Source: Selaginella moellendorffii (lineage: Eukaryota > Plantae > Lycopodiophyta). From it: a stretch of 64,000 bases of DNA. Under the pieces are notes generated by a model. The model ran no database searches, was not told the origin of the DNA, and saw only the letters and a program-made list of their open reading frames with translations. The stretch's first letter is position 1, and each line of letters opens with the position of its first letter. A program made the translations under genes and the position numbers. Shown here in pieces: positions 10,271 through 44,421 of the stretch. The stretch lies in contig NW_003314264.1 of assembly GCF_000143415.4 (NCBI RefSeq), forward strand, positions 2,427,710 through 2,491,709. The letters run 5' to 3'.

Positions 10271-10408
10271 ATGGAGTTTTGTGTGGAGTTTTGCGAGGAC
10301 GAGGAGCTTCTAGCTGTCAGCCTGTTCATCCCAGAAATGCAGGATTTTCCCTCTTTTGGGAATTCTTCTGAAAGGGAATTAGAATGCTTGCCGCCATCGC
10401 CTTGCTAG
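10271..10408 (+). pseudogene. OVATE-like gene remnant (ATG joined to the last ~45 codons)
   Basis: About 580 bp deleted relative to the intact copy at 40294-41013. Confidence 0.8.
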
Positions 10409-12404: not shown

Positions 12405-12611
12405 ATGATCTGGGCAGGATTCGCGTACGCCGCGGGCGCCGCGATCGGCCACAGCTGCATCGATGCCAGCAGGAAATGGGCGTCCCAGCGCTTCTCGGAC
12501 CGCGAGCTCGTAGCTCTGGTGGCTCTCCTGGACGCGCTGCTCCTCTCCTCCATGGCGCTCCTCTCCGGCGGCTTCGATCTCTTCTCTTTGACGCGGCTGG
12601 ACACCGAGTAC
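12405..12611 (+). pseudogene. EamA/DMT transporter 5' fragment fused out of frame to RING-CH copy 2
   Basis: MIWAGFAYAAG...DTEY matches the gene starting at 43003, then switches to RING-CH sequence. Confidence 0.85.
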
Positions 12612-13920: not shown

Positions 13921-13936
13921 ATATGTACTGTAATTC

Positions 13937-21790: not shown

Positions 21791-21913
21791 ATACCGTGAC
21801 GCCAATAGCATGGTCTAAGCCCTTGAGCTTGAGCGTAGCGAAGCACCGGGAAGCCCAGGGACACGCATACGAGATGTAGAGATGGTACCTATCGGCCATG
21901 GCCGGAATATCAC

Positions 21914-23680
21914 GCCCAGCGATGGCGATGGCGTCTCCCGGCGTGGAATCTGGGAAGCACGAGCTTGTATTCCACGCTCATGGGTATGTTCTTGCGAAAT
22001 GTAGGTGGATTGAGCTGGAGACATGGATTTTCTATCTCCAGACAAGCATGCGCCCATTCCCGACGATATTTTGCGAATTTTGGAGAAGAGAATGATCTCT
22101 ATTGAAGACCGCCATGCCTGCCTTTCCAAAGCGCTTCTAGAGGTTAAGTGTAGATTCGGATTTCGTCCTTGAAAATGCGATCGTGAATGATTTCAGCCTG
22201 GGATTGCGTCAGACGAGCTCATCAAGATGAACAAGGAGCTTCGCAAGCTGGATTACTCCGTGGATATGATCAAGGCGCTGAGAGCCAAAGAAAAGGTTTG
22301 ACGTCGAAAGTTTGGAAAAAGAAGACTCTTTGGTTGAATGCAGGAAGTAATTGGCTTGAAAGAATTGGTAAAAGAGTCCGTTGAAGACGAAGAAATGCGT
22401 AGGCTGGCCTCTGGAGAACTTCAAACGGCCACCAGAGAAGTGAGAGATGCTCAGCACGATGTTCTCCTGGAGCTTATTCCTAAGGATGAAGCTGATAGCA
22501 GAGGTTATATTCTCGAAGTCAGAGCAGGCAAGTGCAACCCATAAGCTTGATGTTTGATATGTTTTATCTAATTTTTAGGAGCTGGAGGTGACGAAGCGTC
22601 AATTTTTGCGTCTGATCTCTTCAAGATGTAGGCACGTCTTTCTGGTTCATGTCGAATGCTTATTGGATTTCTATGAATGCTCTCAGGTATGAGAAATACA
22701 CTGCAAACAACTCATGGAGGTTTGAAGTTCTGAGCATTACTACCACCGACACCCGAGGTTACAAGGTAACTATCCGGTTCTCCACCGGCGTATCTGAGCT
22801 TGTCTTTATAGGAGGCTAGTGCTGTAATATCTGGAGATGGTGTTTATGGAGCTCTGAAGTTCGAAAGTGGCGTTCATCGCGTCCAGGTACGAAAGTAATT
22901 ACCGTGGTTTCATTTTTTTTATATGCATCCGTGTGCAGCGTGTTCCTGTCACTGAGAAGGCTGGGCGTATACACACAAGTACTGCGTCAGTCGCTATTCT
23001 TCCCGAAGCGAATGAGGTTCACTCCAGGTTTACTAAATCTTTGCACTTGCATAGACCATTGATACATGTTTTTTTTCTCTCGTTTTTCTGTTGCTGAAGT
23101 TTGACTATGCTGACAGGTTGATGTCGAGATCCGTAATGACGAGATAAAGATAGACACTTACCGAGCTGGTGGAGCCGGTGGACAGCATGTAAATACTACC
23201 TGCAGCGCAGTCCGAGTTACTCACGCTCCAACAGGTATCGTGGTCGCAATCCAAGACGAACGCTCTCAACACAAGGTAGGCCCTTCAACACCCGTGCTTT
23301 GCTACAACTGAGTTGAGATTGTATAGAACAAAGCAAAAGCTTTGAGTATTTTATATGCTAGGCTGTACGAGCTCGAGCGGTCCCGAGCAGCGGCAAGTCG
23401 GTCTGAATTACGACAAGATCAGGTAATTCAGTTTATTGTCGCAGAACGTTATTTTTTCTATTTTTATAAATTGTCACTCCAGATCGGCTCAAGCGACAGA
23501 TCGGAGCGCATAAGAACGTATAACTTTCCCCAAGGTCGGGTAACTGATCATCAAGTGGGAGTGACGCAACACGCGATTGAGCAAATTATGGAGGGGATTG
23601 GTCTGGAAATTTTTGTGAATGTGCTCAAGATGCAGCACGAAGCGAGCGCTTTGGCGTCGCTCAAATCTGCAGCAGCTTGA
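21914..23680 (+). pseudogene. prfA: Release factor 1, copy 2, start codon and promoter deleted
   Basis: Body carries PVT and GGQ motifs, but the first codons were removed by the deletion joining it to GHR exon 1 (CAC|GCCCAGC at 21913/21914). Confidence 0.82.
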
Positions 23681-23988
23681 CTACCCATAAGTTTCACTGT
23701 TTTTTTTTCTTCCTATGTTTTTTTTACCGTGTCAGATGTTGACAATTGGAAGCATTTGTTTGAACGTCAGGTGAGTGTTCTATTATAAATGGCAACAGCA
23801 CTGACTTGTTTCCATGCACAGGACCGTCATCGGATCAATGTGCGTGGACGGCACGAAGCTGATCATGTAGGCCTCTTTCGTACGACGATGTGAGCTAAAA
23901 AATGGAGTGGGGGAAGTCAGAGGTGCCAGGCCACCTACTTAAACGTTTCTCCTGAAAGAATCAACATCTTGGTCAGTAGCAGAGGAGG

Positions 23989-24534
23989 ATGGTTCATGAA
24001 ATGACGGCTGCCGATGGGACGCTACGGGTGGTTTCTTTTCCTTGGTGCATTAAGTTCCGGAGCGTTTGCAAGAATCTCTTGAAGCGGATGAAACTCATCG
24101 GTAGAAGGTCGTCAACTCGTGGGGTGCTGGTGAAGAGGAGCAGCAACAAGCACAGGATCAGTTGGACAGCGAGCTTTGCATACAGGCAGCAGCAGAAGCA
24201 AAAGCTCAAGAAGTCGGGAAGCAGTTTATGGTCGTTTAGTGGCTACAGCAAACTCAAGAACAGTGATAGCTGCACGGAAGCTTTAGATGGCCAGGAAGTC
24301 ATCCACCGCAACTTAGAGGACTCTCAGGCTTCGTCCAGCAGCTTCTCGTTCAAGAATGATGCGGAGGACCTTGGGCATGGCAAAGGCAAGAAGATTTTGT
24401 CACCGCATCCTGGCGTGCAGCGCAGTGAGGCTATGAAGCTCAAATCGAGGTGGGACGAAGTGGTGGAGATGGTTGTAGCGGACAGCTTTGATGATTTGGT
24501 GGACTTGGAGGAATTTCTGGGCTACTATATGCTG
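23989..24534 (+). pseudogene. OVATE-like gene, copy 2, 3' part deleted
   Basis: Matches the gene at 40294 up to GYYML, then jumps ~370 bp ahead into downstream sequence. Confidence 0.8.
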
Positions 24535-24962
24535 AGAAAAAAGTACCAGTCACTGAAAGTTTCACCTCAGGAATCCACCTCTTTTGGTTTAAGCTTAATT
24601 TCGCCACAACCAGCTTGCTCTTGCTGCTCCGCCCAGCACGAGTTTGTGCTAGCCCGCACGACAAAAACAAAATAGATTTTGCCCTTGTTGTAAACTCTGT
24701 ATGGATCAGCAGGAAATCTGATCCAGACGATAATCTTGTTGTGGGCTAGTGACATGGTCTAAAGTCTCTTCCGTACTAAAGCCTTAAAAAGCTTTTCACA
24801 GAAGTTTAAGTAAAACAGATGGATTTTGCAGGCTTGCGCAGATTTTACTCATAAAATACATTCCAACAAATATTCTATACCGTATCAGAATATTTGTTTG
24901 AATGTATAGTATATTTTCATCGCCCTTAACAGCATACCTAGATTATTTGGTAGTCAGCAAGA

Positions 24963-25973
24963 ATGAGAGACGTGTTGGTCAAGGACATCCATCATCTCCA
25001 AGACTATCCAGTCTTTGGTTCACAGACATCGGCTTTTGTTACGTTTGGGAGCGTGGGGGAGCTCATGGCCTTTTTGCGACAGCAGCACCCGCTCTGCCCA
25101 CACGGCTGCGATAGCTCGGCACTCACCAAGTTTGACTATTTCGAAAACCACATGCTGATCCAGCCGCGCTACAAGTGCACGGTGTGCAAACGGCACTTCA
25201 CCCTGGGTGGCACAATACGAGCGAAACGAGCCAAGAAAGAAGATGGCGGTCGTCCAAGGAAGAGACCCAAGAAGGAGCAGCAGCAGAACAAGTCAAGGGG
25301 GCAGTGTCTTCCTCGCGAGATGTTGCCTTCGTCAATGATTCCATCGGCCGCAACCAGTGGGAGTCGCGGTTGTGCATCCCCGCGCAGGGCAAGTCGCGGA
25401 GCTTCGAGGAGAACGCCGAGGCCATCACCAAGAACTACAGGTCAATGCCCTAGTCAACTCGTGGTCCGGGATCAGTCGTTGCCAGTCAACGCCTGTGACC
25501 TCGAGGGATACGTGCAGGACGAGGAGATCTTCCAGGAGGTTGAGAAATTGTGGTGTAAAATGGATTTGGAGGACAAGGGTCCTTCTGTGGAGGACGAGGA
25601 GAAGAACTTTCTCAAGGATTTCAATGTCGATGATGGTGATGATCTAGATTTACTACTGGGTCTTGAGGAGTTCAGCGGGGAGTTCAGCGACCAACAGGGC
25701 CAGGGCACCCGATTCGATTTGGGCGAGGAGCAAAACAATTTTGCCATGGAGCTGGTGCGGCAAATGGAGGAAGAATTTCCCATCCCAGTAGTAGATGAGG
25801 AGAATGATTTCGCCATGGAGTTGGAGCGGGAAATTGAGGAAGCATCTATGACAGCAAAGGAGGAGGCAATGCTTGTATGGAAGGACGAAGTACGTAAAAT
25901 TCGAAATCAAGACAATCTCACATTCACCACAAATCACATTGGTTTTGGAGGTGCCCAAACTCTTAAATGCTGA
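24963..25973 (+). CDS. Atypical Dof-like zinc-finger protein, copy 2 (336 aa)
   Basis: Intact ORF; zinc-finger region identical to copy 1. Confidence 0.75.
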   Translation: MRDVLVKDIHHLQDYPVFGSQTSAFVTFGSVGELMAFLRQQHPLCPHGCDSSALTKFDYFENHMLIQPRYKCTVCKRHFTLGGTIRAKRAKKEDGGRPRKRPKKEQQQNKSRGQCLPREMLPSSMIPSAATSGSRGCASPRRASRGASRRTPRPSPRTTGQCPSQLVVRDQSLPVNACDLEGYVQDEEIFQEVEKLWCKMDLEDKGPSVEDEEKNFLKDFNVDDGDDLDLLLGLEEFSGEFSDQQGQGTRFDLGEEQNNFAMELVRQMEEEFPIPVVDEENDFAMELEREIEEASMTAKEEAMLVWKDEVRKIRNQDNLTFTTNHIGFGGAQTLKC

Positions 25974-26296
25974 TCGATCAGCAAAAAATGGATGATAAAT
26001 GAAAAGTGAATAGAAGTAATTTTGTTTTTGGAACAAGTTCATTACATTATTTGTTATTAGGTGAAGAGTTTTTCGTGAAAAAAGACTCACCCATCCCTTG
26101 TGAAAGAAAGAAAAAAAGAAATTAGGGCGAATTAGGTCTCCATAAGGTCGTCCCCGGAGGCAGAGGAGCCGCGATGCTGTGATTGTCAACCGAGCAGGTA
26201 TTCTGGTGGCACCAATCGCGCCTTCGCCGACAATGCAGCGATCGTCCTAGCGATCGATCGATCGATCGATCGCTCGCTCCGGAGAAGAGCAGAGAA

Positions 26297-27258
26297 ATGA
26301 TCTGGGCAGGATTCGCGTACGCCGCGGGCGCCGCGATCGGCCACAGCTGCATCGATGCCAGCAGGAAATGGGCGTCCCAGCGCTTCTCGGACCGCGAGCT
26401 CGTAGCTCTGGTGGCTCTCCTGGACGCGCTGCTCCTCTCCTCCATGGCGCTCCTCTCCGGCGGCTTCGATCTCTTCTCTTTGACGCGGCTGGACACCGAG
26501 TACGTCGCCGCGCTCCTCGTCACCGCGGCGATCAAGGCTCTGGTGGGGTTCATGTACCAGCGTGCTCTCCACGTCTCCCCTCTCTCGGTCACTGTTCCTT
26601 ATCTAGCTTTCACTCCAGTTCTTCTGGTTTTTACGAGCTATGTGATCATCAACGAGCTCCCGAGCTCGCAGGGGCTCATGGGAATCGTGGTGGTCACTCT
26701 CGGCGGCTACTTCCTCGCGCTGGATCACCCGGCGGAGGTGGAGGTGAAGAAATCCGACGAGCCCCCGGGCAAGATCGTCTCGGTTCTTCCTTTGCTTCCT
26801 TGGAACTCGTCCAAGGCTTGTGACAAGGTCCCAAAGTTTTCCACCGATGGCGATGGTGTCGTGTTGGATCTCAGTGAGAAGAACTCCCCTCCGGTGGCGA
26901 TTCCTGGAGGGAATTCTTCCTGGTGGCCACAGATTCAATGGTAAAGATTTCTCTCTCTCTCTTTTTTCGCTTTTCCTGTTCTAAAGTTTGCAAAAGGGAA
27001 GAGGGGACGCTCCTCATGCTGGGTGTTGCAGCGTTACTGAGCATAAGTAACAGGTTCGTTTTCTCGAGATTCATTTATGGCTTCTTAGCTCCATTGTCTT
27101 TGCAGCCTTGACAAAATGGCTGGTCACTTGGCACCATCGCTTCTCAATTTTGCTGCTCTCCAACGAGGCTTTACGGCCGTTCCCGTGGTTTTATACCTAC
27201 TTGTCACAAGGTTGGCTTGTTTATCTCTCTCAGGTGATAGCTTAGCTGACTCCTGCGT
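26297..27258 (+). pseudogene. EamA/DMT transporter exons 1-3, truncated at the duplication junction
   Basis: Near-identical to 43003-43964; the 3' exons are replaced by RING-CH copy 3. Confidence 0.85.
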
Positions 27259-28713
27259 CAATGCTCTTCCGCCGCCACCGCCATCCATCTCCAACACCCC
27301 AGGAGCAGCAACACCCCGATCAAACTTCTCGCTCATGCGGCTCCTCACGCCCCGCTCCGCAAGAACAGTGTCTCTTCCATTGCGATTCACGCTATCGTCT
27401 TCTTCGTCCGCGTCTCCGTCGTCTTCTTCGTCGACAGGGGCCGCAGCAGTGAGTCCAGATCGTCATCAAAGGTAGAACTTTTCTTTCTTTCTTTCATCGT
27501 CAACTTTGTCATCTCGTCTTCGCAGGGCAAGCAGATCAAACGCTCCAAGTCGGCGCTCGATGGTCACCAAAAGGAGAAGAAGCTCACCCGGCTTTACTCC
27601 GGAACGTTTCTCGTCAAGCCGACCACTCCTCGTCCTCATCCCCGGGAAACTTCACAAGCAGACGATGGAGCCCAAGACACTGACCATGCCAACGACACCC
27701 AAGGTACGTAAGCTTCCTATGATCAAGTTCATGGAAACCATGGTTCCATGATCTGAAAGTTTCAAAACTTTTAGACGGCGAGGACGAGGAGATCCCCGAG
27801 GAGGAAGCAGTGTGCCGCATTTGCCTGTGCGATCTGGGCGAGGAGGGCAAGACGCTCAAGCTCGAGTGTAGCTGCAAAGGGGAGCTGGCGCTGGCTCACG
27901 AGGAGTGCGCTCTCAAGTGGTTTGGGATCTGAGGCAACCGCGAGTGCGATGTTTGTGGCCAGGAGGTCGTCAATCTCCCCGTCACGCTCGTCAGGCTCCA
28001 GCAAAACCAAAACAATATCAACGCTGAAACTCAAGTTCTCCAGCAAGCTCAAATGGCGCAAATGAGTGCTCTCAACAGGTAGATTCGTCTATCTCGCTCT
28101 ATAGTTTTATAGATTCCATGGTGTTCTTCCAGGATTTGGCATGACGTTCCCGTGCTCGTCATGATCAGCATGCTCACGTACTTTTGCCTCCTCGAGCAGC
28201 TACTGGTGATAGTTCTCTGATGATTTCGATTGATTTGCGAAGTTCTTGGATGGATTCTTTGTTGCCTACTACAGGTGAGACGAAAGGGCCCTCGAGCATT
28301 GATGCTAGCTCTGCCATTCGCCGTCATGTTTGGAATGCTCACTGCCATCACAGCATCAACGCTTGGTAAGATTTCGTCTCTCTCTCTTTCTCTCGAGCTC
28401 CTGTTTGTAACAATAGATTCTTTCGACGCACAGTGAGGCGGCGTTGTATGTGGCTCTTTGCCATCTTCCAGGTCGGTTTTGTCATACTATTTGCGCATGT
28501 TTTCTACAGTTGGGTAAGATCACTCTCTTAAAACTTTTTTAGCTCTTATTTCAATCCATGATCCAGATGAAGTTGAACCCAATCTTGTCAATTTCGCTGG
28601 CCGGTTTTGCGGGATTCGGATTGTCCATGATCGTGAATGCTCTCCTCCTGGAATGTTGGAGCTGTAGAACAAGAGCAGCGCGACAAGAAGACGCAAGCCA
28701 AGATATTGTGTAA
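27259..28713 (+). pseudogene. RING-CH E3 ligase, copy 3, disabled
   Basis: Frameshifting deletion at ~27460 and a CGA>TGA nonsense codon inside the RING (ATC TGA GGC, ~27930). Confidence 0.88.
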
Positions 28714-28729
28714 ATATGTACTGTAATTC

Positions 28730-29592
28730 TTACACACTTGTTTTGTGATAGAACAAAATGTATGCATCGCTCGAGCACCTCGATAGCTCAAAAATCTCTT
28801 CCACCACCTCATCGTCAAAGCTGTACCACTTTCCATTTGGAAGTTTGATGGTTGCCGTGTAGTGCCCATAGTCGGAGTCTCCCATATGGTTAATCAATCC
28901 ATACAGTTTGTACTCCTGTTCCCAAAGTGTCAAAATCTGTGGAAACTCCACCGTGGTGTCGATCTTCTCCACACTCCCCGAAGAATCGCACTTAAACCTT
29001 GCCAAATGGAGGATCAAATTCCGTGGGAGCTTCCCAAGCTCCAGTTTCTTGACAGCGTCCTTTTGGTTTCTCTTGCACTTTGGGCAGTGCCAGGAATCCA
29101 AAACATCGTCTTTGGTGTACTCCCGGATGCATGATTCCAGAGAAACCGGCTGCGCCGTCTCATGGACTGGCAGCGAGAGAGAGGTGAAAGATTCAGGCGT
29201 GGAGGAGACCATGTTGGAGCACTTCGGGCATTTCACTGTGGATTTGGTTTGGCCCTCGAAGAAATCTGCGACTGGAGAGGGGAGCTCTGGGCGCACCTTT
29301 TTTCCTTTAGGAGGATTCTCTTGCTTCTTGAATTCTTGATCCAGGGCACCCAAAAGAAAATCGAGATACTCCTGTGCGTCCTGCTGGACGCTCGGATTTG
29401 TCAGCTTTGGCCCTGGTTTTACAGACTTGCTTGCGTTATTCCAAATCGCCCTCACCACTTTCCTAAACTCGATTGCTATCTCACCTCTTACACTGTCTGA
29501 TTTCAAGAAGAAGCTAGAGAGCTCCGGCGTGTGAGCTGTAAAGCACTGTTGGCTGAACAAGAATTCCCTTGGTTTTGAAAGCCCACAGCCAT
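28730..29592 (-). pseudogene. USP deubiquitinase, copy 3, disabled
   Basis: 7-nt frameshift deletion just after the Cys box (~29536). Confidence 0.86.
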
Positions 29593-32500
29593 TTTACTTG
29601 CACACAACCCAAAAGAAAACCTAGAATATTTAAAGAAAACAAACAGGAATTAAATAATTAAATAATATATATAAAACAACTGTGAGTGCATGGAATATAG
29701 AAAAAAGAATACAGAAATGTGCATATCAATTAGCCCAAAAACTCTAACTTATACACAGGAGCGAGTGGTCCGGATTGAAACCAATCTGACGGCTACCAAA
29801 ATCCCACTACGCTAATATTAGTATACGGCATCGTAGCCGTACACTTGGCCCTCACATTAGCCCCTCCTCTCGGAATAATGGAAGGCCGTCAAGGTTCTTT
29901 TGTAGATGGGCCGGGATCTGGAGGAACGTCAAAAGGAGGCATCGGTGGATCTGTAGATGGTATTAACTACTCCTGATCCCTTTGTATGAAGCGTTTTAAC
30001 CATTGCACATGCACAATCTAAACCACGTACCGTAAGATAGGGAAAACGGACTAACACCAAATCATCCACTTTGTATTCCGCAGGTGGACGATGATGGGAA
30101 TTGTAGCGCTGTTGTTGTCCCACTTGTACACGGCCTAAGTGTTCAATAGACTCTGCTTGGACAAATGGAAAAATGCTTGTCAAATACTGATCCCATGACC
30201 TAGCATCAAGAGCTCATGGCAATCGCGAAGGTAAACCCAACTCTGTTAGTAATATTGGATCATGACCATATAGAAGTTTATATGGTGAAGCACCAACAGA
30301 ACTCTGAACCCCTGTGACATAGGCATACCGAAGAGACGGCAAATAACCATCCCAATCCGAATGCTGAAAGTTCACATACTTCGCAATCATCCCTTTGAAT
30401 GTCCGAACAAGCCGTTCCACCAGACTGTCTGATTGTGGATGATAAGCACTCGTAAAAGTGTGGCGTATCCCCAACCGAGATGTCAAAACATGAAATACCT
30501 CAGCCATAAATGCAGGACCATTATCCGAAAGAATCCACTCTAGACAAGAATGCTGGAACACCACTCGATTGAGGAGGAAGTATCCAACAGTAGTTGCAGA
30601 GGCACTAGCAAGAGCACCAACTTCCACCCAACGAGTCAAGTAGTCAGAAGCAATAATAACATACTCATTGCCAGCAGTCGATCGTGGAAAAGGTCCTATA
30701 AGATCAAACGCCACCAACTCAAACGGACGAAAAACTGCAATTGACTCCAACCATCCTTCCGCAGCACAAGGGGGAGTATTACTAGCTTGGCACCAAACGC
30801 AGCTACGCACATACTGGATAATATCACATTGCATCTCTGGCCAATAGAAAGATCTGCGCAGCTTCTCGGTGACACGACGGTGTCCCATATGCCCACCTAG
30901 AACAGAAGAATCATGGTAGGCATGGAGAAACCGCGGAATAAACATCGAAGGCACCACTAGCCGTAAATGATCATCAGGATCCGTCCCCACAAAATAAAGA
31001 AGGCCATCTTCAAGGCGATATTGAGAATATAAATGCCGGAAAGGCAAGTCATCAGCAAGTGATGCAGAATTCTCAAACCCATCTCGAAGCCTTCGAATCC
31101 ATGGCTCAATCTTTTGAGCCTCGCGAACCTCATCAAGAGAAGGTAGATCTTGCTCTGCGCCCTGTGGACACTGAACGTCAAGGACAGCAACCGCCGACGG
31201 CACAAAATCCTCATCTAGAAAATCCACAGATGCTGGAACAACAAGTTCGTCAGAAACATGAGAAGTGAGTGGAGAAGGAAAAGGAGCTCGAGAAAGGGCA
31301 TCAGCATCAGCCATAGAACTCCCTGGGTGATGAACAACATCGAAATTATATATCTGAAGCTTCAAAGCCCATCGAGCCGTATGACCAACCAGGTTCTTCC
31401 GCTTCAATAATGAAGTAACAGCAGCATGGTCACCTTCAAGTAACGTCCGAGAACCATGTAGATATGCATGAAGTTTGTCGAAACCCCAGACTGCTGCTAA
31501 ACACTCCTTCTCCATCGTGGAGTAGTTCATCTCCGCTGGTTGTAATGTACGGCTTATGTATGTAATAGGATGGCGCTGACCAGGCACACTTGAGCTCTCT
31601 TGCATCAACACACCTCTAAGACCAATGTCAGAAGCATCCACACGCAAAATAAAAGGTCGAGTGTAGTCAGGATATGCCAAAACCGGAGGAGTCGTCAATA
31701 GCTCTTTGAGATTCACGAACGCCCGCTCACAATCCGGAGACCAGATGAAAGATGACGTTGATGACTTCAGCAACGCTCGCAATGGTGTAGTGCGATCGGA
31801 AAGATGATCCACAAAACGACTGAGATACTGCATCTTACCCAAAAAGCGCTACATATCATTCACACACTCCGGAGTAGGGAACTTTAGAACAGCCACAAGT
31901 TTGTCAGGGTCAACTTGCAAACCCTTACGAGAAATACAGTACCTAAGATAAGTTCTGTCCTTGGACCCAAACACGCTTCAGCTTCAAACCAACGTCGCGT
32001 AGCCGATCCAACACTTTACAAACATCACGAACGTGCTCCTCCCACATCCCCTCTGAGTGGATCAAGACATCATCAATAAAGTCAGCCGTCACCTTCGGCA
32101 TATCGCAAAGAACCTCATCCATCATCCGCTGAAAAGTTGCTGGAGCATTGTTCAAACCAAACGGCATCACCAAGAACTTGTACAAACCAAATGGTGTACG
32201 AAAAGCAGTCTTAGGAATATCTTCTTCGGCCATCGGTACTTGCTAATACCCAGAAGCAAGATCTAGCTTGGTGAACTAACGACTTCGCTCCAGACGATCC
32301 AAGAGATCAGCAGTGTGAGGAAGAGGGTACACGTCCGGGATCGTCACTTCATTTAATGGACGATAGTCGATGCAGAAACGAATACTCCCATCAGGCTTCG
32401 TCACAAGATGAGGTTCACATGCCCAAGGACTCCGCAACTTCCGAATAACACCCTTCTCCAACATCTCCTTGACGTTTGCACGTAAAATCTTGATCTCCTT

Positions 32501-33148
32501 GGGTGACCGACGACGAACAAGAACCTTGATTGGACGAGCATCCCCGGTTGGAATGGGATGATGTGTGGCAATCTTGGCCCCAGACGATAGATCAAATTCA
32601 AAGAGATCAGAATACTCCTTCATGAGCTGGTCAACAGCTGCAACACAAAGATCATCGGAGGGATCGGAAAAGGGAAGAGCAGAACAAGATGGAAACACAA
32701 TAGGAAACAGTGGGGGAACAAAAGTAATAGAAGCAGAGGTAGAAGTAAAGGGATGAAGAGGTACGGAAGTGAGAGGAATGGATGAAACATAAGGAAGAAC
32801 GAGATAAGGGGGAGAAGCCTCAAAATCACACTTGGCATGATTGCGCTGCAACCAATCCATACCAAGAATGAGGTCAAAAGCTTGACTCGGCACCACCCGC
32901 AACGACTGCAACTCAAGCTCGAGATTGCCCACACGCACAACTAAGTCCGCCTCATCTCGTGCACATGCATGTGTACGGCCGTTGCCATAAAGAATGAAAA
33001 CTGGATCCGCCGCATGACGCAAGTGTAGACGACAACGTGTGGCAACAGGTCGAGCAATAGAAGATAAACTCGAACCTGTATCAACCAACACAAAGAGAAG
33101 AATAGGAGACCTCTTGTTATAAAAACGAGCTTGGAAAGTAAACACTGG

Positions 33149-33742
33149 TGTAAGCTCCTGAGTTTGGACTTCCTGGGAGGTCACCCAACCCAGTACTATT
33201 CAAACCCAAGGACGCTTAACCCCAAATATCCCAAGACCCTTAACCGATTGGAAAAGGGGGTGCACTCTTATTCATTGGCCCTTTCCCTCTATATTTGAAC
33301 CCCATGGATCGTCTCTCAAGTCGTTCCCTTTGGTTGCTTACAATCCACCACACTTCCCTGCAAGTTCACGCCCTCGTGAACGGAAGCTGAGAGCCGCGGC
33401 TCTCCCGAGAGCCCCACTCTCTTGACACCCTACCCCTCGGGTCAAGCCCAGCGGGAGCAAACTGGACCAGCCAGATGTCAATCAACATGTGGTGTGATTC
33501 CCCTAGTCAACCAACAGAGTCGAACCTGAGACCCTCTCTGATACCAAATGTAAGCTCCTGAGTTTGGACTTCCCGGGAGGTCACCCAGCCCAGTACTATT
33601 CAAACTCAAGGACGCTTAACCCCAAATATCCCAAGACCCTTAACCGATTGGAAAAGGGGGTGCACTCTTATTCATGGGCCCTTTCCTTCTATATTTGAAC
33701 CCCATGGATCGTCTCTCAAGTCATTCCCTTTGGTTGCTTACA
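33149..33742 (-). mobile_element. Cassandra-type TRIM (5S rRNA-like LTRs) nested in Gypsy B
   Basis: Two 194-bp LTRs (33149-33342, 33549-33742) and a 206-bp non-coding interior. PBS TGGTATCAGAG, PPT AGGGAAGTGTGGTGG, TSD ACTGG/ATTGG. Each LTR contains GTTAAGCGTCCTTG...TAGTACTGGG.TGGGTGACCTCCC.GGAAGTCC, matching the 5S rRNA A-box/IE/C-box region. Confidence 0.93.
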
Positions 33743-33795
33743 ATTGGATGAACCGGTGCCGAGTGAACCCCTTGATGATACTCCCGAAAGAAAGA

Positions 33796-33858
33796 TGGAG
33801 GGGTCACTAACTTATTCGCGCAAGGTCCCTCCATTACTCGCGCGACTCCTCGTTTCCC
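33796..33858 (-). promoter_or_regulatory. Predicted -1 programmed ribosomal frameshift signal between gag and pol
   Basis: G_GGA_AAC in the gag frame (33858-33852), a 6-nt spacer, stem 1 UCGCGCGAG/CUUGCGCGA and stem 2 UGGAGGG/CCCUCCA. Pol lies in the -1 frame. Confidence 0.8.
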
Positions 33859-36709
33859 GAATGCACCTCGGTATCCAAACCTTCCACCACAGCAGCACCA
33901 ACGGGACGTTGCTGACGCCAAGGTCTCCACCCAGGAAATGGAGGTCGCCAATCTGGAAAGCGCCGACAACGCCAATAAGTATGACCAACTTCATCACATG
34001 CCCAGCAACGAACATCACGGCCACGACCACGTCCTTGCCCTTGTCCTTGGACTCGAGTAGCAGCAGCATCAACCTCCATGGGAACAGGACCATCACTCAT
34101 AGGAAGTGGAGCTGAAGGACGTGTAACAAGAAGTGGAAGAAGCAACGTCTCATAACATTGTGCTAAGCGAAGAGCATCGTCAAAGGTGGCAGGAGCAAGT
34201 GCATGCACAAGTCCGACAAGATCTTGACGAAGTGCTGGCCACAACATTCCTAGCTTGATCCGCTCCGATATATTTGGCTCCGCACGAAGCAAAAAACTTC
34301 GGAAACAAACGCCAAATTGCATCACCGACTCAGATGGCCCTTGGCGAAGACGATGAAATTGTTGGAAGGCATCATCACAATCGTTGGCGTGTCCGAAGGC
34401 GCATTTGAAGACGTCCGGAAGAACACTCCAATCACCACGAGTGGCTACGCTCAATCCATTATACCACTGCAATGCCGTCCCTTGGAGACATGTGGGGAAC
34501 TCACGCAAACATCGAGCATCATCCCAAGAATGATATGTGGCAATCACCGTGAAGTGATCGAACCAATGGTACACATCATCCCCAGGAGTCCCACGAAAGA
34601 ACTCCGGCCGAACACGAGGATTGGCACCAAGAGCAGGAGGAGTTGTACCATGTGCCATGAACACTACCATCAATTGAGTTTGGTTGTTCAATTGCAAGCG
34701 CATAGCATCAAGCAATTGAACCAACTGCTGCTCTAGAGTCAAAGGAGGAGATTGCGGATCGGCCATGAAGATGAATGAAAAAAAGAAAGAGCAAAAGAAG
34801 AGAAATGACAAAAAAACTGGAAAGAAATGGTAGATCTAGACAATGCAAAAAGCTAGATCTAAACCAAAATCCTGAAAGGAAAGAACAAAAGAAAGGAAAT
34901 GGAAAAAACTAAATCTAGACAATGCAAAAGCTAGATCTAAACCGAAATCCCAAATTTAAGCACTCCCCAGAGACAATCAAAGGTGCCCCTCACCTCCACG
35001 AATGTGAATACATGGAATATGGAAAGGGAATACAGAAATATGCATATCAATTAGCCCAAAAACCCTAGTTTATATACAGGAGCGAGTGGTCCGGATTGAA
35101 ACCGATCCGACGGCTACCAAAATCCCACTATGCTAATATTAGTATACGGCATCGTAGCCGTACACTTGGCCCTCACACAACAAAATTACCGATTTTACAT
35201 TTATATAATAAATATAAATGGAGAGTTATTGATGATAGATGATAATATTAAAATTATTTATAAAATGCCTTAAAATATTTTTTAATTGTGTTATAAGCTT
35301 ATATAAACACATTTCACATTATAGAATTAAACTTCACTACTTAAATATCTATTTTAAAATTATACAAAGGATCAAAATATTAGTGATTTGTAATATAAAA
35401 ATTTTAAAAATGTTTTATTTGCTATAAATAAATAATAGACCTTTGCTACACTTACTCTTGTGATAACAATTATTTCACACTTTTTTCTTTTGTATTTTAG
35501 CTAATTGAATAAGTCATTGACATCACACAACCAAATTATAAAAAAAATGAGGAAAGGGATTCAATATGTAATAAGGATATTCTAATATAAATATATTTTA
35601 GGTTATGATAGTAACTTTAAAAGTTTTAAACACTATTTTTATAAGGATTTTTTACACACTCTTGACAAAAGTATCTATAATTAAGAAAATGGAATTAAAA
35701 AAACATGATTATAATTTACTAGGGATTTTAAAACATTAATTGTTTTTGTAACATTCAAAAATTCACAAGAGAAAATGCATATATAAAAAGTTAAAGACCA
35801 CAGGCCTTGTTGGGATAATTGACAAAAATATATAAGTGATGGTAGAAGAAAATACATGGAAGTTTAAACATCCTTAATTTATATTTAGTGTATGGTAATG
35901 TTACTTTTTTTTTTTCAAATGTAGTATAGTATATCTTCTATATAATTTATATTTAGTGTATGGTAATGTTACTATTTTTTTTTCAAATGTAGTATAGTAT
36001 ATCTTCTATATAATCTCAAAGAGTTAACACAGAAAACATTTTAATTTTATTCTTCAACATTACTTTCCATTTAGCTAAATTCTCTTTAATATCCTTTTTA
36101 GTAAATTTTCTAAAAAAAGAAAAGGTTTTAATGATCTAAGATCCCTTTTGCTAAAAGCTTTTCTTTATTTAGATGCCTTTTGTGCTAAATAATGTATCAA
36201 AAATATTTTTCTTTCTTGTGATAGAAAAATTTGATTTTTTTAAAAATACATTAACAAAAAAAACAATTGAATAATGCTGCAAGGAATTTGCTTAAGCTTT
36301 AGCATATTATCCTCAAGATTTTGAAGACTAAAGACTAGAGGGACCAAGAGTGACAAGCAAATCAACTTTTATCCCTTACATTGTGGTTTAATGCCTTGAA
36401 AGCATGTAATAATTGAAGATTAATTCAAGAATCTGAAAGACTGGTTACAAGAGTGAAAGGAATCAAAACCAATGGTACATATTATCCCCAAGATCTCAGA
36501 AGACCATCACAAAGATGTTGAAGATTGCTGAAGTACATCTGGTTGGCTAGTTGCACTTAATATATAGAGATCCACTTGCATGGGATCTGGCATTGGTTGA
36601 TCCTTAGGACACTGCATCGTGAAAGCGTAAAAAGCAAAAGAGAGAAAGCAGAAATGGAAAACGAATAATATATTATCGAAGGTAACAATCATAACTGGGA
36701 ATCTAAAAC

Positions 36710-38151
36710 TCATGTGTTAAACTTGTGGCGGTCGTGTGGAGTGGAGTAGTCGATGACGCTTCCAACAGGGATGACGCCATACGGATTGATGGAGGGATGA
36801 CTTCCGTAGTAGTGCTTTTTGATGTGGTCCATGCGGACGGTGTCCGAGATCCGATCCATCTGGTACACGTCCTTGACGAAGTTGAAGAGGTTTGGGTACT
36901 CACGGATCAGCTTCTTGTTGCACTTGAAATGAACAACATAAACCTGGCATAGGTAATGAATTTGAATAAAACTTCGAGAGAAAGCAAGAAAAAAAACACC
37001 CCAGAGCTTACTTCGTCGAATCTTATCAGCGTCTTGAAGAGCCGGAGATCTGCCTCGGTGAAAACGTTTCCGCACAGATACCTCTGCTTTGAGAGGATAT
37101 CCTCGCAGCGATCCAGCGCATTGAACAGAGCCTCAAACGCCTGCGACAAGTAAAAGAACTTGGATTCATAAGAAAAACTAAAGAAGAAAAGTTCTGAAGA
37201 TTTACCTCCTCATAAGGCTTCTGCTTGGTTGCAAAGCCACAGCGATAAACTCCGTTGTTGATGGAGTCATACACCCAAGCGTTCACTTCATCAATCTTGG
37301 CCTGGAGATCTCTCGGGTAAAGGTCGAAATCGGGACGCTTTGCAAGATGGTTGAACTCGCTGTTGAGCATGCGGATGATATCAGAGCTCTCATTGTTCAC
37401 GATAGTTTTCTTTGCTTTGTCCCAAAGAACCTGTTTACGTCAGGCAATCAAGCTGTGAAAACCTTGAAGGGAAAGAAAGAAACGAAGAAAGAAAGGAAGC
37501 GAGTACTCACGGGAACAGTGTACTTTCCAGTGTAGTTTGGATTGGCGATGTCGTAAAGTTCACGGACAGTCTTGGCATCGTTTATGGGGTCAGGCTGAGC
37601 ACCAGGTTCCTCGTTGTCAGAGGAAGGAAACGTCCATCCAAAGTGACTCTCGCCTTCTTTGGTTCTCTCCCACTTTGGTTTTGTGGACTACACGTTACGA
37701 GAGAAAGGTGTGAAGATCATCCTCAAGAAAACAAAAGAAGAAGCTTCTAGCACTTAGAATTGTCCAAAGCAACAAGGATACACGCCAACCATATGAAGCA
37801 CAAGAATCGAAGAAAACAACACTTAGTTGTCACAAACAAACCATATGAAACACAGGAAATCGAAGAAAACGCTAGCTTCATGCAAGCGCGAGAAAGCTTC
37901 TAACTTCCAAAAGAAAGAAGGAAATTTCTTTGACATACCGTGACGCCAATAGCATGGTCTAAGCCCTTGAGCTTGAGCGTAGCGAAGCACCGGGAAGCCC
38001 AGGGACACGCATACGAGATGTAGAGATGGTACCTATCGGCCACGGCCGGAATATCACACCCTTCTTTGCTAGAAATCCAGCTGCGAAACGATGACTCGGT
38101 GCGCTTGAATTCCCCATCCGTCGATGTCTCATCGATCGCCGTCTTTCCCAT
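36710..38151 (-). CDS. Glutathionyl-hydroquinone reductase, copy 3, apparently intact
   Basis: Same exons as copy 1, including CPWA. Only intronic indels and a G>R substitution were seen. Confidence 0.88.
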
Positions 38152-38321
38152 CGCTCGTCCAGCTCCAAATCGCCTCTTCTGGATCCGAGCGGCAAATCGC
38201 AGTGATCCTCTGGCGATCCCGACGGAGAGAGCCGCCAGATTGACTTCCTGTTGCCCGCAACGTGGCAAGCATTTCTTTTCTACTGCGATTTGGATTACTT
38301 TGGGCTCTGGTTTTTAGGGTT

Positions 38322-40098
38322 ATGATGCTGGGAGCTGCCCGGCGATGGCGATGGCGTCTCCCGGCGTGGAATCTGGGAAGCAGGAGCTTGTATTCCACGC
38401 TCATGGGTATGTTCTTGCGAAATGTAGGTGGATTGGAGACATGGATTTTCTATCTCCAGACAAGCATGCGCCCATTCCCGACGATATTTTGCGAATTTTG
38501 GAGAAGAGAATGAGCTCTATTGAAGACCGCCATGCTTGTCTTTCCAAAGCGCTTCTAGAGGTAAAGTGTAGATTCGGATTTCGTCCTTGAAAATACGATC
38601 GTGAATGATTTCAGCCTGGGATTGCGTCAGAAAAGCTCATCAAGATGAACAAGGAGCTTCGCAATCTGGATTACTCCGTGGATATGATCAAGGCGCTGAG
38701 AGCCAAAGAAAAGGTTTGACGTCTAAAGTTTGGAAAAAAGAGACTCTTTGGTTGAATGCAGGAAGTAATTGGCTTGAAAGAATTGGTCAAAGAGTCCGTT
38801 GAAGACGAAGAAATGCGTAGGCTGGCCTCTGGAGAACTTCAAACGGCCACCAGAGAAGTGAGAGATGCTCAGCACGATGTTCTCCTGGAGCTTATTCCTA
38901 AGGATGAAGCTGATAGCAGAGGTTATATTCTCGAAGTCAGAGCAGGCAAGTGCAACCCATAAGCTTGATGTTTGATATGTTTTATCTAATTTTTAGGAGC
39001 TGGAGGTGACGAAGCGTCAATTTTTGCGTCTGATCTCTTCAAGATGTAGGCACGTCTTTCTGGTTCATGTCGAATGCTTATTGGATTTCTATGAATGCTC
39101 TCAGGTATGAGAAATACGCTGCAAACAACTCATGGAGGTTTGAAGTTCTGAGCATTACTACCACCGACACCTGAGGTTACAAGGTAACTATCCGGTTCTC
39201 CACCGGCGTATCTGAGCTTGTCTTTATAGGAGGCTAGTGCTGTAATATCTGGAGATGGTGTTTATGGAGCTCTGAAGTTCGAAAGTGGCGTTCATCGCGT
39301 CCAGGTACGAAAGTAATTACCGTGGTTTCATTTTTTTTATATGCATCCGTGTGCAGCGTGTTCCTGTCACTGAGAAGGCTGGGCGTATACACACAAGTAC
39401 TGCGTCAGTCGCTATTCTTCCCGAAGCGAATGAGGTTCACTCCAGGTTTACTAAACCTTTGCACTTGCATAGACCATTGATACATGTTTTTTTTTTCTCG
39501 TTTTTCTGTTGCTGAAGTTTGACTATGCTGACAGGTTGATGTCGAGATCCGTAATGACGAGATAAAGATAGACACTTACCGAGCTGGTGGAGCCGGTGGA
39601 CAGCATGTAAATACTACCTGCAGCGCAGTCCGAGTTACCCACGCTCCAACAGGTATCGTGGTCGCAATCCAAGACGAACGCTCTCAACACAAGGTAGGCC
39701 CTTCAACACGCGTGCTTTGCTACAACTGAGCTGAGATTGTATAGAACAAAGCAAAAGCTTTGAGTATTTTATATGCTAGGCTGTACGAGCTCGAGCGGTC
39801 CCGAGCAGTGGCAAGTCGGTCTGAATTACGACAAGATCAGGTAATTCAGTTTATTGTCGCAGAACGTTATTTTTTCTACTTTTATAAATTGTCACTCCAG
39901 ATTGGCTCAAGCGACAGATCGGAGCGCATAAGAACGTATAACTTTCCCCAAGGTCGGGTAACTGATCATCGAGTGGGAGTGACGCAACACGCGATTGAGC
40001 AAATTATGGAGGGGATTGGTCTGGAAATTTTTGTGAATGCGCTCAAGATGCAGCACGAAGCGAGCGCTTTGGCGTCGCTCAAAGCTGCAGCAGCTTGA
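38322..40098 (+). pseudogene. prfA: Release factor 1, copy 3, with a nonsense mutation
   Basis: ACC TGA GGT at 39172-39174 where copies 1 and 2 have ACC CGA GGT (T-R-G); otherwise complete. Confidence 0.85.
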
Positions 40099-40293
40099 CT
40101 ACCCATAAGTTTCACTGTTTTTTTTTCTTCCTATGTTATTTTTACCGTGTCAGATGTTGACAATTGGAAGCATTTGTTTGAACGTCAGGTGAGTGTTCCA
40201 TTATAAATGGCAACAGCACTGACTTGTTTCCATGCACAGGACCGTCATCGGATCAATGTGCGTGGTCAACATCTTGGTCAGTAGCAGAGGAGG

Positions 40294-41013
40294 ATGGTTC
40301 ATGAAATGACAGCTGCCGATGGGACGCTACGGGTGGTTTCTTTTCCTTGGTGCATTAAGTTCCGGAGCGTTTGCAAGAATCTCTTGAAGCGGATGAAACT
40401 CATCGGTAGAAGGTCGTCAATTCGTGGGGTGCTGGTGAAGAGCAGCAGCAACAAGCACAGGATCAGTTGGAGAGCGAGCTTTGCATACAGGCAGCAGCAG
40501 AAGCAAAAGCTCAAGAAGTCGGGAAGCAGTTTATGGTCGTTTAGTGGCTACAGCAAACTCAAGAACAGCTGCACGGAAGCTTTAGATCGCCAGGAAGTCA
40601 TCCACCGCAACTTAGAGGACTCTCAGGCTTCGTCCAGCAGCTTCTCGTTCAAGAATGATGCGGAGGACCTTGGGCATGGCAAAGGCAAGAAGATTTTGTC
40701 ACCGCATCCTGGCGTGCAGCGCAGTGAGGCTATGAAGCTCAAATCGAGGTGGGACGAAGTGGTGGAGATGGTTGTAGCGGACAGCTTTGATGATTTGGTG
40801 GACTTGGAGGAATTTCTGGGCTACTATATGCTGCTCAATTGCCCCGTCTTTCGAGCCATGGTGCAGAGGTTTTTTAGCGAGTTTTGTGTGGAGTTTTGCG
40901 AGGACGAGGAGCTTCTAGCTGTCAGCCTGTTCATCCCAGAAATGCAGGATTTTCCCTCTTTTGGGAATTCTTCTGAAAGGGAATTAGAATGCTTGCCGCC
41001 ATCGCCTTGCTAG
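40294..41013 (+). CDS. OVATE-family-like protein (divergent, OFP17/19-like), intact, 239 aa
   Basis: C-terminal EVVEMVVA...LVDLEEFLGYYMLLNCPVFRAMVQRFF resembles the OVATE/DUF623 domain. Basic N-terminus; intronless. Confidence 0.65.
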   Translation: MVHEMTAADGTLRVVSFPWCIKFRSVCKNLLKRMKLIGRRSSIRGVLVKSSSNKHRISWRASFAYRQQQKQKLKKSGSSLWSFSGYSKLKNSCTEALDRQEVIHRNLEDSQASSSSFSFKNDAEDLGHGKGKKILSPHPGVQRSEAMKLKSRWDEVVEMVVADSFDDLVDLEEFLGYYMLLNCPVFRAMVQRFFSEFCVEFCEDEELLAVSLFIPEMQDFPSFGNSSERELECLPPSPC

Positions 41014-41647
41014 TTTAAAGGAATAACGTTTCTAGGAAAAAAGAAAAAACATCGTTAGTAAAGCATATTTTCACCACCATGACTTTTACTTTACATTTTA
41101 AAAGTTTCTAAAATATTAAATAGTCTTACCTCCATAAAGGTTTGAATAAACAATAGATTAGTTTTGGTTTAAACCAGACGAAAAGGTCGCCTCACAAGAA
41201 AAAAGTACCAGTCACTGAAAGTTTCACCTCTCCTCATCTCTCAGGAATCCACCTCTTTTGGTTTAAGCTTAATTTCGCCACAACCAGCTTGCTCTTGCTG
41301 CTCCGCCCAGCACGAGTTTGTGCTAGCCCGCACAACAAAAACAAAATAGATTTTGCCCTTGTTGTAAACTCTGTACGGATCAGCAGGAAATCTGATCCAG
41401 ACGATAATCTTGTTGTGGGCTAGTGACATGGATTAAGTGGTCTAAAGTCTCTTCCGTACTAAAGCCTTAAAAAGATTTTCACAGAAGTTTAAGTTAAAAC
41501 AGGATGCCTCATGGATTCTTGCGCAGATTTCACTCAACTTTACATTCCAACAAATATTCTGATACTGTATCAGAATATTTGTTTGAATGTAAAGTATATT
41601 TTCATCGCCCTTAACAGCATACCTAGATTATTTGGTAGTCAGTAAAA

Positions 41648-42673
41648 ATGACAGAAATGAGAGACGTGCTAGTCAAGGACATCCATCATCTCCAAAACTA
41701 CCCAGTTTTTGGTTCACAGACATCACAGCAGGCTTTTGTTACGTTTGGGAGCGTGGGGGAGCTCATGGCCTTCTTGCGACAGCAGCACCCGCTCTGCCCA
41801 CACGGCTGCGATAGCTCGGCACTCACCAAGTTTGACTATTTCGAAAACCACATGCTGATCCAGCCGCGCTACAAGTGCACGGTGTGCAAACGGCACTTCA
41901 CCCTGGGTGGCACAATACGAGCGAAACGAGCCAAGAAAGAAGATGGCGGTCGTCCAAGGAAGAGACCCAAGAAGGAGCAGCAGCAGAACAAGTCAAGGGG
42001 GCAGTGTCTTCCTCGCGAGATGTTGCCTTCGCCGATGATTCCATCGGCCGCAACCAGTGGGAGTCGCGGTTGTGCATCCCCGCGCAGGGCAAGTCGCGGA
42101 GCTTCGAGGAGAACGGCGAGGCCATCACCAAGCACTACAGGTCAATGCCCTAGTCAACTCGTGGTCCGGGATCAGTCGTTGCCAGTCAACGCCTGTGACC
42201 TCGAGGGATACGTGCAAGACGAGGAGATCTTCCAGGAGGTTGAGAAATTGTGGTGTAAAATGGATTTGGAGGACAAGGGTCCTTCTGTGGAGGACGAGGA
42301 GAAGAACTTTCTCAAGGATTTCAATGTCGATGATGGTGATGATCTAGATTTACTACTGGGTCTTGAGGAGTTCAGCCGGGAGTTCAGCGACCAACAGGGC
42401 CAGGGCACCCGATTCGATTTGGGCGAGGAGCAAAACAATTTTGCCATGGAGCTGGTGCGGCAAATGGAGGAAGAACTTCCCATCCCAGTAGTAGATGAGG
42501 AGAATGATTTCGCCATGGAGTTGGAGCGGGAAATTGAGGAAGCATCTATGAAAGCAAAGGAACAAGCAATGCTTGTATGGAAGGACGAAGTGAGTAAAAT
42601 TCGAAATCAAGACAATCTCACATTCACCACAAATCACATTGGTTTTGGAGGTGCCCAAACTCTTAAATGCTGA
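41648..42673 (+). CDS. Atypical Dof-like zinc-finger protein, copy 3 (341 aa)
   Basis: Intact ORF; indels relative to the other copies are in frame. Confidence 0.75.
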   Translation: MTEMRDVLVKDIHHLQNYPVFGSQTSQQAFVTFGSVGELMAFLRQQHPLCPHGCDSSALTKFDYFENHMLIQPRYKCTVCKRHFTLGGTIRAKRAKKEDGGRPRKRPKKEQQQNKSRGQCLPREMLPSPMIPSAATSGSRGCASPRRASRGASRRTARPSPSTTGQCPSQLVVRDQSLPVNACDLEGYVQDEEIFQEVEKLWCKMDLEDKGPSVEDEEKNFLKDFNVDDGDDLDLLLGLEEFSREFSDQQGQGTRFDLGEEQNNFAMELVRQMEEELPIPVVDEENDFAMELEREIEEASMKAKEQAMLVWKDEVSKIRNQDNLTFTTNHIGFGGAQTLKC

Positions 42674-43002
42674 TCGATCAGCAAAAAATGGATGATAAAT
42701 GAAAAGCATTAGTGAATAGAAGTAATTTTGTTTTTGGAACAAGTTCATTACATTATTTGTTTTTCGGTGAAGAGTTTTTCATGAAAAAAGACTCACCCAT
42801 CCCTTGTGAAAGAAAGAAAAAAAGAAATTAGGGCGAATTAGGTCTCCATAAGGTCGTCCCCGGAGGCAGAGGAGCCGGGATGCTGTGATTGTCAACCGAG
42901 CAGGTATTCTGGTGGCACCAATCGCGCCCTCGCCGACAATGCAGCGATCGTCCTAGCGATCGATCGATCGATCGATCGCTCGCTCCGGAGAAGAGCAGAG
43001 AA

Positions 43003-44421
43003 ATGATCTGGGCAGGATTCGCGTACGCCGCGGGCGCCGCGATCGGCCACAGCTGCATCGATGCCAGCAGGAAATGGGCGTCCCAGCGCTTCTCGGACCG
43101 CGAGCTCGTAGCTCTGGTGGCTCTCCTGGACGCGCTGCTCCTCTCCTCCATGGCGCTCCTCTCCGGCGGCTTCGATCTCTTCTCTTTGACGCGGCTGGAC
43201 ACCGAGTACGTCGCCGCGCTCCTCGTCACCGCGGCGATCAAGGCTCTGGTGGGGTTCATGTACCAGCGTGCTCTCCACGTCTCCCCTCTCTCGGTCACTG
43301 TTCCTTATCTAGCTTTCACTCCAGTTCTTCTGGTTTTTACGAGCTATGTGATCATCAACGAGCTCCCGAGCTCGCAGGGGCTCATGGGAATCGTGGTGGT
43401 CACTCTCGGCGGCTACTTCCTCGCGCTGGATCACCCGGCGGAGGTGGAGGTGAAGAAATCCGACGAGCCCCCGGGCAAGATCGTCTCGGTTCTTCCTTTG
43501 CTTCCTTGGAACTCGTCCAAGGCTTGTGACAAGGTCCCAAAGTTTTCCACCGATGGCGATGGTGTCGTGTTGGATCTCAGTGAGAAGAACTCCCCTCCGG
43601 TGGCGATTCCTGGAGGGAATTCTTCCTGGTGGCCACAGATTCAATGGTAAAGATTTCTCTCTCTCTCTTTTTTCGCTTTTCCTGTTCTAAAGTTTGCAAA
43701 AGGGAAGAGGGGACGCTCCTCATGCTGGGTGTTGCAGCGTTACTGAGCATAAGTAACAGGTTCGTTTTCTCGAGATTCATTTATGGCTTCTTAGCTCCAT
43801 TGTCTTTGCAGCCTTGACAAAATGGCTGGTCACTTGGCACCATCGCTTCTCAATTTTGCTGCTCTCCAACGAGGCTTTACGGCCGTTCCCGTGGTTTTAT
43901 ATCTACTTGTCACAAGGTTGGCTTGTTTATCTCTCTCAGGTGATAGCTTGGCTGACTCCTGCGTTCTCTTTTACAGCCCAAAGTCATTCTCGCTTTTGAT
44001 TCACTTCTTTCCAGTGCTGCTGGCCATCTCTCTGTTTGAGGTCGTAGCCTTCATTTGCTACCTCAAGAGCTTGGAGATCCTGCTCGTCTCGTACGCTGTT
44101 GCGGTAAGCAATCTCTTCCTGCCTCTCTTTGTTTTCTCTTTTCTCCACTTCTTTGGTCTTTTCTCTCCTTTGTTTCTGGCTCAAGAAAAGCAAACCGGGG
44201 ACTTTTCTAATGCGGACTTTGAGTGCAGGCTAAGCGCAGCAACGTGCTACTCTCAGTTTTGATAGGAAGAGTGGTGTTCAAGGTAGCAAATGGTCGTCCC
44301 GCAGCTTTTGAAATTGTCTTCCTTTTGACTCGTTTGACGTCCTTTGCAGGAAAAGATATGGAGGCGATTGCCATTCATTTTGATGATGGTTGGCGGAATG
44401 ACGCTTATTTTGCTGGCTTAA
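43003..44421 (+). CDS. EamA/DMT-superfamily membrane transporter, complete copy
   Basis: Multiple TM segments; ALHVSPLSVTVPYLAFTPV, NELPS..GLMGI, LVSYAVAAKRSNVLLSVLIG...FKEK. Five exons splice to TAA at 44419-44421. Confidence 0.85.

Follow-up and report, generated by a model that had tools for sequence, protein, structure and literature searches.

How can a retrotransposon obtain the products of its pol gene if gag closes with a stop codon and pol lies in another reading frame? This question is raised by a Ty3/Gypsy copy, here called copy B, in a stretch of 64,000 nucleotides of the Selaginella moellendorffii genome (contig NW_003314264.1, positions 2,427,710 to 2,491,709), which we refer to as the window. 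The original prediction was that the family makes Gag-Pol by -1 frameshifting at a slippery heptamer followed by an H-type pseudoknot. Our sequence-based follow-up supports this view, as the protease frame of insertion-free copies, the majority form of the cassette and its conservation in a sister clade point in the same direction: the family very probably produces Gag-Pol by programmed -1 frameshifting at G_GGA_AAC, stimulated by a predicted pseudoknot.

Copy B is located on the minus strand. Its LTRs (5' LTR at 35003-35177 with TG...CA ends, 3' LTR at 29681-29856) are bordered by a 4-bp target duplication (35178-35181 and 29677-29680) and enclose a decayed primer-binding site of the TGGTGGAGA type (34986-35001), which is seen in all three Gypsy copies of the window (A, B and C) and which presumably corresponds to tRNA-Ala. 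The interior contains an open gag of 310 amino acids with a zinc knuckle and a Pfam Retrotrans_gag match (33834-34766), a broken pol encoding protease, RT, RNase H and integrase (29932-33143) and a polypurine tract (29861-29871). LTRs, primer site, polypurine tract and the order Gag-PR-RT-RH-IN identify the copy as a Ty3/Gypsy LTR retrotransposon, and a comparison of both LTRs revealed 162 identical columns out of 175, with transitions at all 13 differing ones. A chromodomain or an additional RNase H was matched neither in the pol of copy B, whose integrase end is broken, nor in the end of copy A, which gave an Integrase_p58_C match. With a 594-bp insertion in pol the length is 5497 bp, without it 4898 bp. 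Due to this insertion and the broken pol, which has at least four stops plus one frame change, copy B is dead and unable itself to make Gag-Pol. The -1 frame is open from the heptamer as far as the insertion (33743-33858) and ends at about 33724 inside the inserted element without reaching pol. The claim that pol starts in the -1 frame and overlaps the end of gag therefore does not hold for copy B itself, but it does for contigs from insertion-free copies of the same family (see below).

The insertion (33149-33742, minus strand) lies about 110 nt past the heptamer and consists of two 194-bp LTRs with TG...CA ends, which are identical at 188 of 194 positions; a 5-bp target duplication is present at 33743-33747 and 33144-33148. 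Both LTRs contain 5S rRNA-like sequence, with RF00001 matches of 36.2 and 31.4 bits (E 1e-5 and 2e-4) that lie under the gathering score of 38. Cassandra elements have a length of 565-860 bp according to PMC10886601, a range that includes the 594 bp found here. Judged by its features, that is short, non-coding and with 5S-like sequence in both LTRs, the insertion is a Cassandra-type TRIM. A second one (about 59107-59652, minus strand) is nested in the gag of copy C, so both sit within copies of one Gypsy family. No RNA data set was listed as containing the Gypsy element. RNA reads from runs X21 and X22, sampled at about 12% of each run, fell almost exclusively on the Cassandra part, nearly all on one strand and with loose ends toward other loci; near the gag-pol junction the depth was at most 1 in these two runs, and run X20 gave no reads.

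At the junction itself (33796-33858, minus strand) the layout of the cassette agrees with the original prediction in every element. Gag runs from the ATG at 34766 to the TAA at 33836-33834, as predicted with a stop at 33834. Its C-terminus reads Ser-Gly-Asn-Glu-Glu-Ser-Arg-Glu-stop, which places the heptamer G_GGA_AAC at 33858-33852 in the gag frame. A spacer of 6 nt (33851-33846) leads to the 5' arm of stem 1 (33845-33837); loop 1 (33836-33834) is the gag stop, overlapped by an ATG of the -1 frame (TAATG). The 5' arm of stem 2 (33833-33827), a 2-nt loop 2 (33826-33825), the 3' arm of stem 1 (33824-33816), a 13-nt loop 3 (33815-33803) and the 3' arm of stem 2 (33802-33796) complete the predicted H-type pseudoknot. 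Stem 1 comprises 9 bp including one G-U pair and stem 2 comprises 7 bp, with a possible eighth A-U pair that uses the last base of the gag stop. The distance of 6 nt between the heptamer and the putative stimulatory structure lies within the 5-9 nt expected of -1 frameshift signals. Readthrough of the gag stop was considered as well and is ruled out, since gag and pol are in different frames.

To score the pseudoknot we used a finder that sums stacking energies in place of a full energy model. On the minus strand of the junction it recovered the predicted fold with a score of -36.1, which was equalled by none of 5000 dinucleotide shuffles. Among 691 X_XXY_YYZ sites on both strands of the window the site of copy B ranks first (runner-up -24.4), and its score was reached at only 2 of 21,304 sampled positions. 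Nested folding of the junction showed no excess stability (z about -0.6) and yielded either stem 1 or stem 2 depending on the segment chosen, which is expected for two crossing stems. A search of the junction against Rfam matched no frameshift-element family.

The state of the family was judged from contigs of public sequencing runs, in place of a genome-wide alignment of copies. The family is very high-copy, with 30,487 contigs over 1.25 kb in run X1, Cassandra copies counted in. The 15 best-supported joints listed for X1 include six between 33142-33147 and 33745-33748, together 29 contigs. Four of them (25 contigs) have a net skip of 599 nt, the combined length of the insertion and its target duplication; the remaining two joints (4 contigs) have inserted letters that are listed in part only. 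Joints bridging the insertion site are also present in run X17. In the contigs from insertion-free copies, recognized by the 599-nt skip, the protease is in the -1 frame, and the distance from the heptamer to the protease Asp is 177 nt without the insertion, a whole number of codons from the start of the -1 frame.

The cassette of copy B is the majority form of the family, as indicated by the variation among contigs, whose depth is a rough proxy for copy share, and by the deepest spanning contig of run X4, which differs from copy B at 1 of 151 bases. Among 2443 X1 contigs no indel reached 2% in the region 33750-33905, and the changes listed there are transitions throughout. The frequency of change is 3-6% of the depth at the heptamer positions, which is close to that of CpG-type sites elsewhere, and 3-12% at the CpG positions of stem 1; such changes may reflect methylation decay after insertion. 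Changes above 15% were found at three positions upstream of the heptamer, at two in loop 3 and at position 33833, which belongs to the outermost stem 2 pair, and at none in the heptamer, stem 1 or the core of stem 2 in the X1 contigs. The change at 33833 (18% of the depth in X1, 24% in X17) breaks the outer U-A pair, and no partner change is listed. The sameness of the cassette among family members is by itself no demonstration of selection, since it comes cheaply with one expansion from few masters; the absence of common changes at 37 key positions versus six such changes elsewhere in the 156 nt gives an estimated p of about 0.2, which is not significant.

The nearest pol protein, P0001 (1043 aa), is 51% identical over RH-IN and starts at the protease with no gag attached. 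A metagenome scan, which covered the best 80 of 435 relatives, gave 79 loci. In an RH-IN tree of 42 of the 96 rows, copy B and P0001 (support 100/100) join 12 of these loci at 100/99, and a FastTree analysis of all 96 rows agrees with this grouping. The loci of this sister clade also hold the closest gags, with 29-35% identity, and seven of the nine examined have an intact TGGTGGAGA primer site like that of copy B. Gag and protease are both present in 21 sister-clade loci, four of which were placed by likeness of gag and junction and not by the tree. These 21 loci have 23 junctions, of which 22 place pol in the -1 frame; only in a second copy in L010 do gag and protease share one frame, apparently after a deletion. 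A slippery heptamer was found in 20 of the 21 loci, and the first junctions carry G_GGA_AAC in 13 cases, G_GAA_AAC in six and G_GGA_AAU in one, while the heptamer of L014 is decayed.

These data bear on the objection that an accidental offset between the frames became fixed in dead copies, and that the motif arose by chance. It is true that all three Gypsy copies in the window are defective. The same offset, however, occurs in the insertion-free contigs and in members of the sister clade whose pol frames are open over long distances, among them L025 with its identical 345-bp LTRs, and the chance tests (none of 5000 shuffles, first of 691 sites) oppose such a reading as well. We consider an accident extremely improbable and already largely refuted.

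The contigs of the sister clade are almost all element, and in the nearest Atlas cluster a phylum is given for one of 73 members, which is Streptophyta. A word-based search with gag gave no matches, and the viral contigs returned no locus with a single query and one distant locus with an alignment. Outside the sister group the 79 loci comprise about a dozen single-frame elements as well as other -1 elements. Six distant Gypsy loci from outside the clade (L032, L045, L046, L066, L037 and L038) have G_GGA_AAC in the gag frame and pol in -1, and a strong pseudoknot is predicted for L045, L046 and L066. Gypsy pol-like sequence was also seen in contigs of six bacterial genome bins of GTDB (L080-L085), all of them distant and probably the result of eukaryotic contamination.

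For the conservation of the signal we compared 16 non-redundant sister rows, which represent about 12-13 families; the shuffle controls ignore relatedness among them. The first base of the heptamer is a synonymous site, being the third base of a codon for Pro or Gln, and it is G in 16 of 16 rows versus a background of 19% (CCG) and 27% (CAG). The Asn codon is AAC in 15 of 16 rows versus 47% in the background. In none of the 16 rows is the -1 frame interrupted between heptamer and protease, which are 126 nt apart in 14 of them. A pseudoknot of the same geometry is predicted for 15 of the 16, and in each of these it was matched by no more than 14 of 300 shuffles (range 0-14), in a test whose search range was chosen after the sequences had been seen; L005 fails with 239 of 300. 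In an alignment that was not fitted to structure 86.7% of the cells pair, versus 80.2 +/- 1.2 after shuffling and 39-65% when slid, five of eleven pairs have changed on both sides, and RNAalifold recovers stem 2 unaided. Pseudoknot finders limited to perfect stems or one defect miss several relatives, and 5 of 15 clade rows were missed by a stricter finder.

MAFFT put copy B, L001, L013 and L025 out of register, and copy B was therefore compared by fixed offsets with L001 and L025 excluded. The 6-bp core of its stem 2 has the same offset of 19 nt from the heptamer as that of the 14 sister rows compared, and all six pairs are kept through two A-U to G-C swaps. This agreement stands against a background of only 11-17 matches in the first 36 bases, and stem 1 of copy B is unlike that of the sister clade in sequence, yet fully paired. 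A covariance model built without copy B ranks its site first in the window (E 0.022). This search has to be regarded as weak, because a second match at 12854-12892, which has a heptamer and no pseudoknot, scores almost equally (E 0.029). GN within the last 20 residues was found in 15 of 80 gag-only proteins versus 67 of 1361 windows (gag tails, 150 distant matches); it is a general Gypsy trait and we did not count it as support. Taken as a prediction from aligned sequences, one pseudoknot geometry is conserved in a diverged sister clade, with compensatory changes in stem 2.

The conserved spacing also separates frameshifting from its best rival, according to which translation ends at the gag TAA and begins again at the -1-frame ATG of the TAATG, so that Pol is made as a separate protein and the pseudoknot serves to hold the ribosome. 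Stop-start motifs occur in RNA viruses, and besides the overlap in copy B an ATG is found at the same offset in 4 of 16 sister rows and overlaps the stop in L024 as well. However, the ATG is lost in 18-24% of the family depth by the change at 33833 and also in copy C, and a -1-frame ATG is absent over 45 nt in 7 of the 16 sister rows. Furthermore, the sister gag stop lies 0, 3 or 15 nt past the heptamer, varying by family, whereas the distance between heptamer and pseudoknot is fixed. We therefore regard restart as very unlikely.

A similarly small chance is left for the idea that splicing joins gag to pol, or that Gag is translated from a short RNA of its own, as known from Ogre and from Copia elements of plants, with the cassette as a relic or a packaging signal. 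Control by splicing is an established plant route (PMC5580714, PMC12786077 and PMC6317226), but it leaves the fixed synonymous G, the AAC codon and the fixed distance to the pseudoknot unexplained, and equally the lack of any stop in the -1 frame between heptamer and protease in 16 of 16 sister rows.

Frameshifting accounts best for these features. Following established -1 frameshift biology, the ribosome would stall at the predicted pseudoknot with the heptamer in its P and A sites. A minority of ribosomes would slip back by one base, enter the protease frame and produce Gag-Pol, while most would translate five more codons, terminate at the loop 1 stop and set Gag free, so that the slipping minority would set the excess of Gag over Pol. 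Folding of the pseudoknot, slippage and its rate are inferred in this scheme by analogy.

The combination of an X_XXY_YYZ heptamer, a short spacer and a structured stimulator is shared with retroviral gag-pro/pol junctions and with plant-virus signals. The -1 signals of luteo-, polero- and umbraviruses indicate that plant ribosomes are capable of a -1 shift. Unlike these viral RNAs, the element described here is nuclear and has neither env nor a virus gene. According to PMC5009743, few heptamers are as shifty as G_GGA_AAC, and G_GA is known as a first triplet. The use of this heptamer by the Gypsy-derived gene PEG10, which the original prediction had stated, is confirmed in PMC2800197. PEG10 and PNMA3 likewise combine a -1 shift at a heptamer with a downstream pseudoknot, the spacer of PEG10 being 5 nt compared to 6 nt here; they differ in being domesticated mammalian genes from another branch of the superfamily with measured frameshifting, whereas the signal of Selaginella is predicted from sequence.

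Among plant elements the closest description is that of Selgy. The element of the window has a 4-bp duplication (copies A and B), 4898 bp without the insertion, a coding region that fills the interior, overlapping gag and pol frames, no chromodomain or extra RNase H and, in A, B and C, the decayed TGGTGGAGA-type primer site, which is presumably of the tRNA-Ala type. In REXdb, Selgy is a non-chromovirus Ty3/Gypsy lineage of Selaginella with a 4-bp duplication in 96%, a mean length of 5044 bp (4.4-6.7 kb), a tRNA-Ala primer in 90% and overlapping gag/pol in 65%; the overlap is given without direction, signal or mechanism in the accessible part of this source (PMC6317226). By this feature table the element is Selgy-like. 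PMC6317226 also reports a gag/pol overlap in 60% of the elements scored for the Tcn1 chromoviruses of mosses and lycophytes. Unlike the element here, these are self-priming, encode a chromodomain and have a 5-bp duplication. For Tcn1, the word "frameshift" is absent from the accessible part of PMC2864245. Sireviruses and one other plant type also have separate frames, but with a +1 offset and a hairpin; they are the only two plant types with separate gag and pol frames in a 2003 survey, as cited in PMC5009743. The original prediction had implied that separate gag and pol frames are exceptional for plant LTR elements. This is right insofar as most have a single frame, but overlapping gag and pol had already been recorded for two lineages outside the seed plants, Selgy and Tcn1.

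Frameshifting itself is a well-known mechanism, and these overlaps are no novelty either. For a -1 heptamer plus pseudoknot in a plant LTR element we found no description in the literature covered, which mostly does not extend to subscription papers. It is conceivable, though we would only tentatively propose it, that this is the first defined -1 signal in a nuclear retrotransposon of land plants, and that it is characteristic of an old Gypsy lineage with a tRNA-Ala primer (Selgy and the unnamed sister clade), which has retained a single pseudoknot architecture although its families are deeply diverged. On that reading, if the host of the sister clade is not a plant, the element would have entered land plants sideways, together with a recoding strategy unused by seed-plant elements. 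Plant LTR elements are generally held to have, for the most part, a single gag-pol frame and to adjust the ratio of Gag to Pol by splicing. With a concrete signal of about 65 nt and compensatory variants found in nature, Pol expression in elements of non-seed plants becomes testable, and a -1 signal encoded in a plant genome is available for comparison with those of plant viruses. For annotators it would mean that the gag/pol break in the Selgy-like lineage is not a mutation.

The other two copies in the window contribute little to the junction. Copy C had been predicted to carry a stop at the matching place. The position is correct, but the stop is a TAG (58675-58673) in a decayed cassette (58636-58697, minus strand) with the heptamer G_AGA_AAU, indels and CpG-decayed stems, in which the finder detected no pseudoknot; for these reasons copy C is weak support. 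Its junction has no Cassandra insertion. A tandem duplication of about 540 bp was noticed in its protease-RT region (57327-58583, minus strand) and another one in its gag. Copy A (2655-5500, plus strand) lacks the junction by an internal deletion from the end of gag to RNase H, which occurred near 3770 via a short shared word and fuses gag in frame to integrase sequence, resulting in a frame of 505 codons. Empty sites were found in the window for both copies A and B, each with a 4-bp duplication; the one of copy A is near 14915-14950.

Copies A (2655) and B (29677-35181) are independent insertions into parallel copies of a repeated unit of about 10-15 kb, at sites that differ by about 135 bp. 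This unit is present in three to four copies (about 1-2650, 6300-17480, 21900-29676 and 35180-43960), which are 95-98% alike across kilobase blocks. The region of both insertions is AT-rich, and a third copy of the unit has neither element. The unit, in which parts of genes for ubiquitin hydrolase (UCH), Dof, Ovate and EamA domains are found, could have arisen by tandem duplication or be a transposon that captures genes. The window contains Dof, Ovate and BTB/At3g05675-like sequences, and the BTB gene is at about the same distance, with 57-68% identity, from proteins of moss, liverwort, fern and gymnosperm, with no close named match. Finally, a very young Ty1/Copia element (17482-21790, plus strand) has identical 88-bp LTRs, a 5-bp duplication, a primer site that is presumably of the tRNA-Met type and a single open frame of 1401 codons whose stop lies within the 3' LTR.
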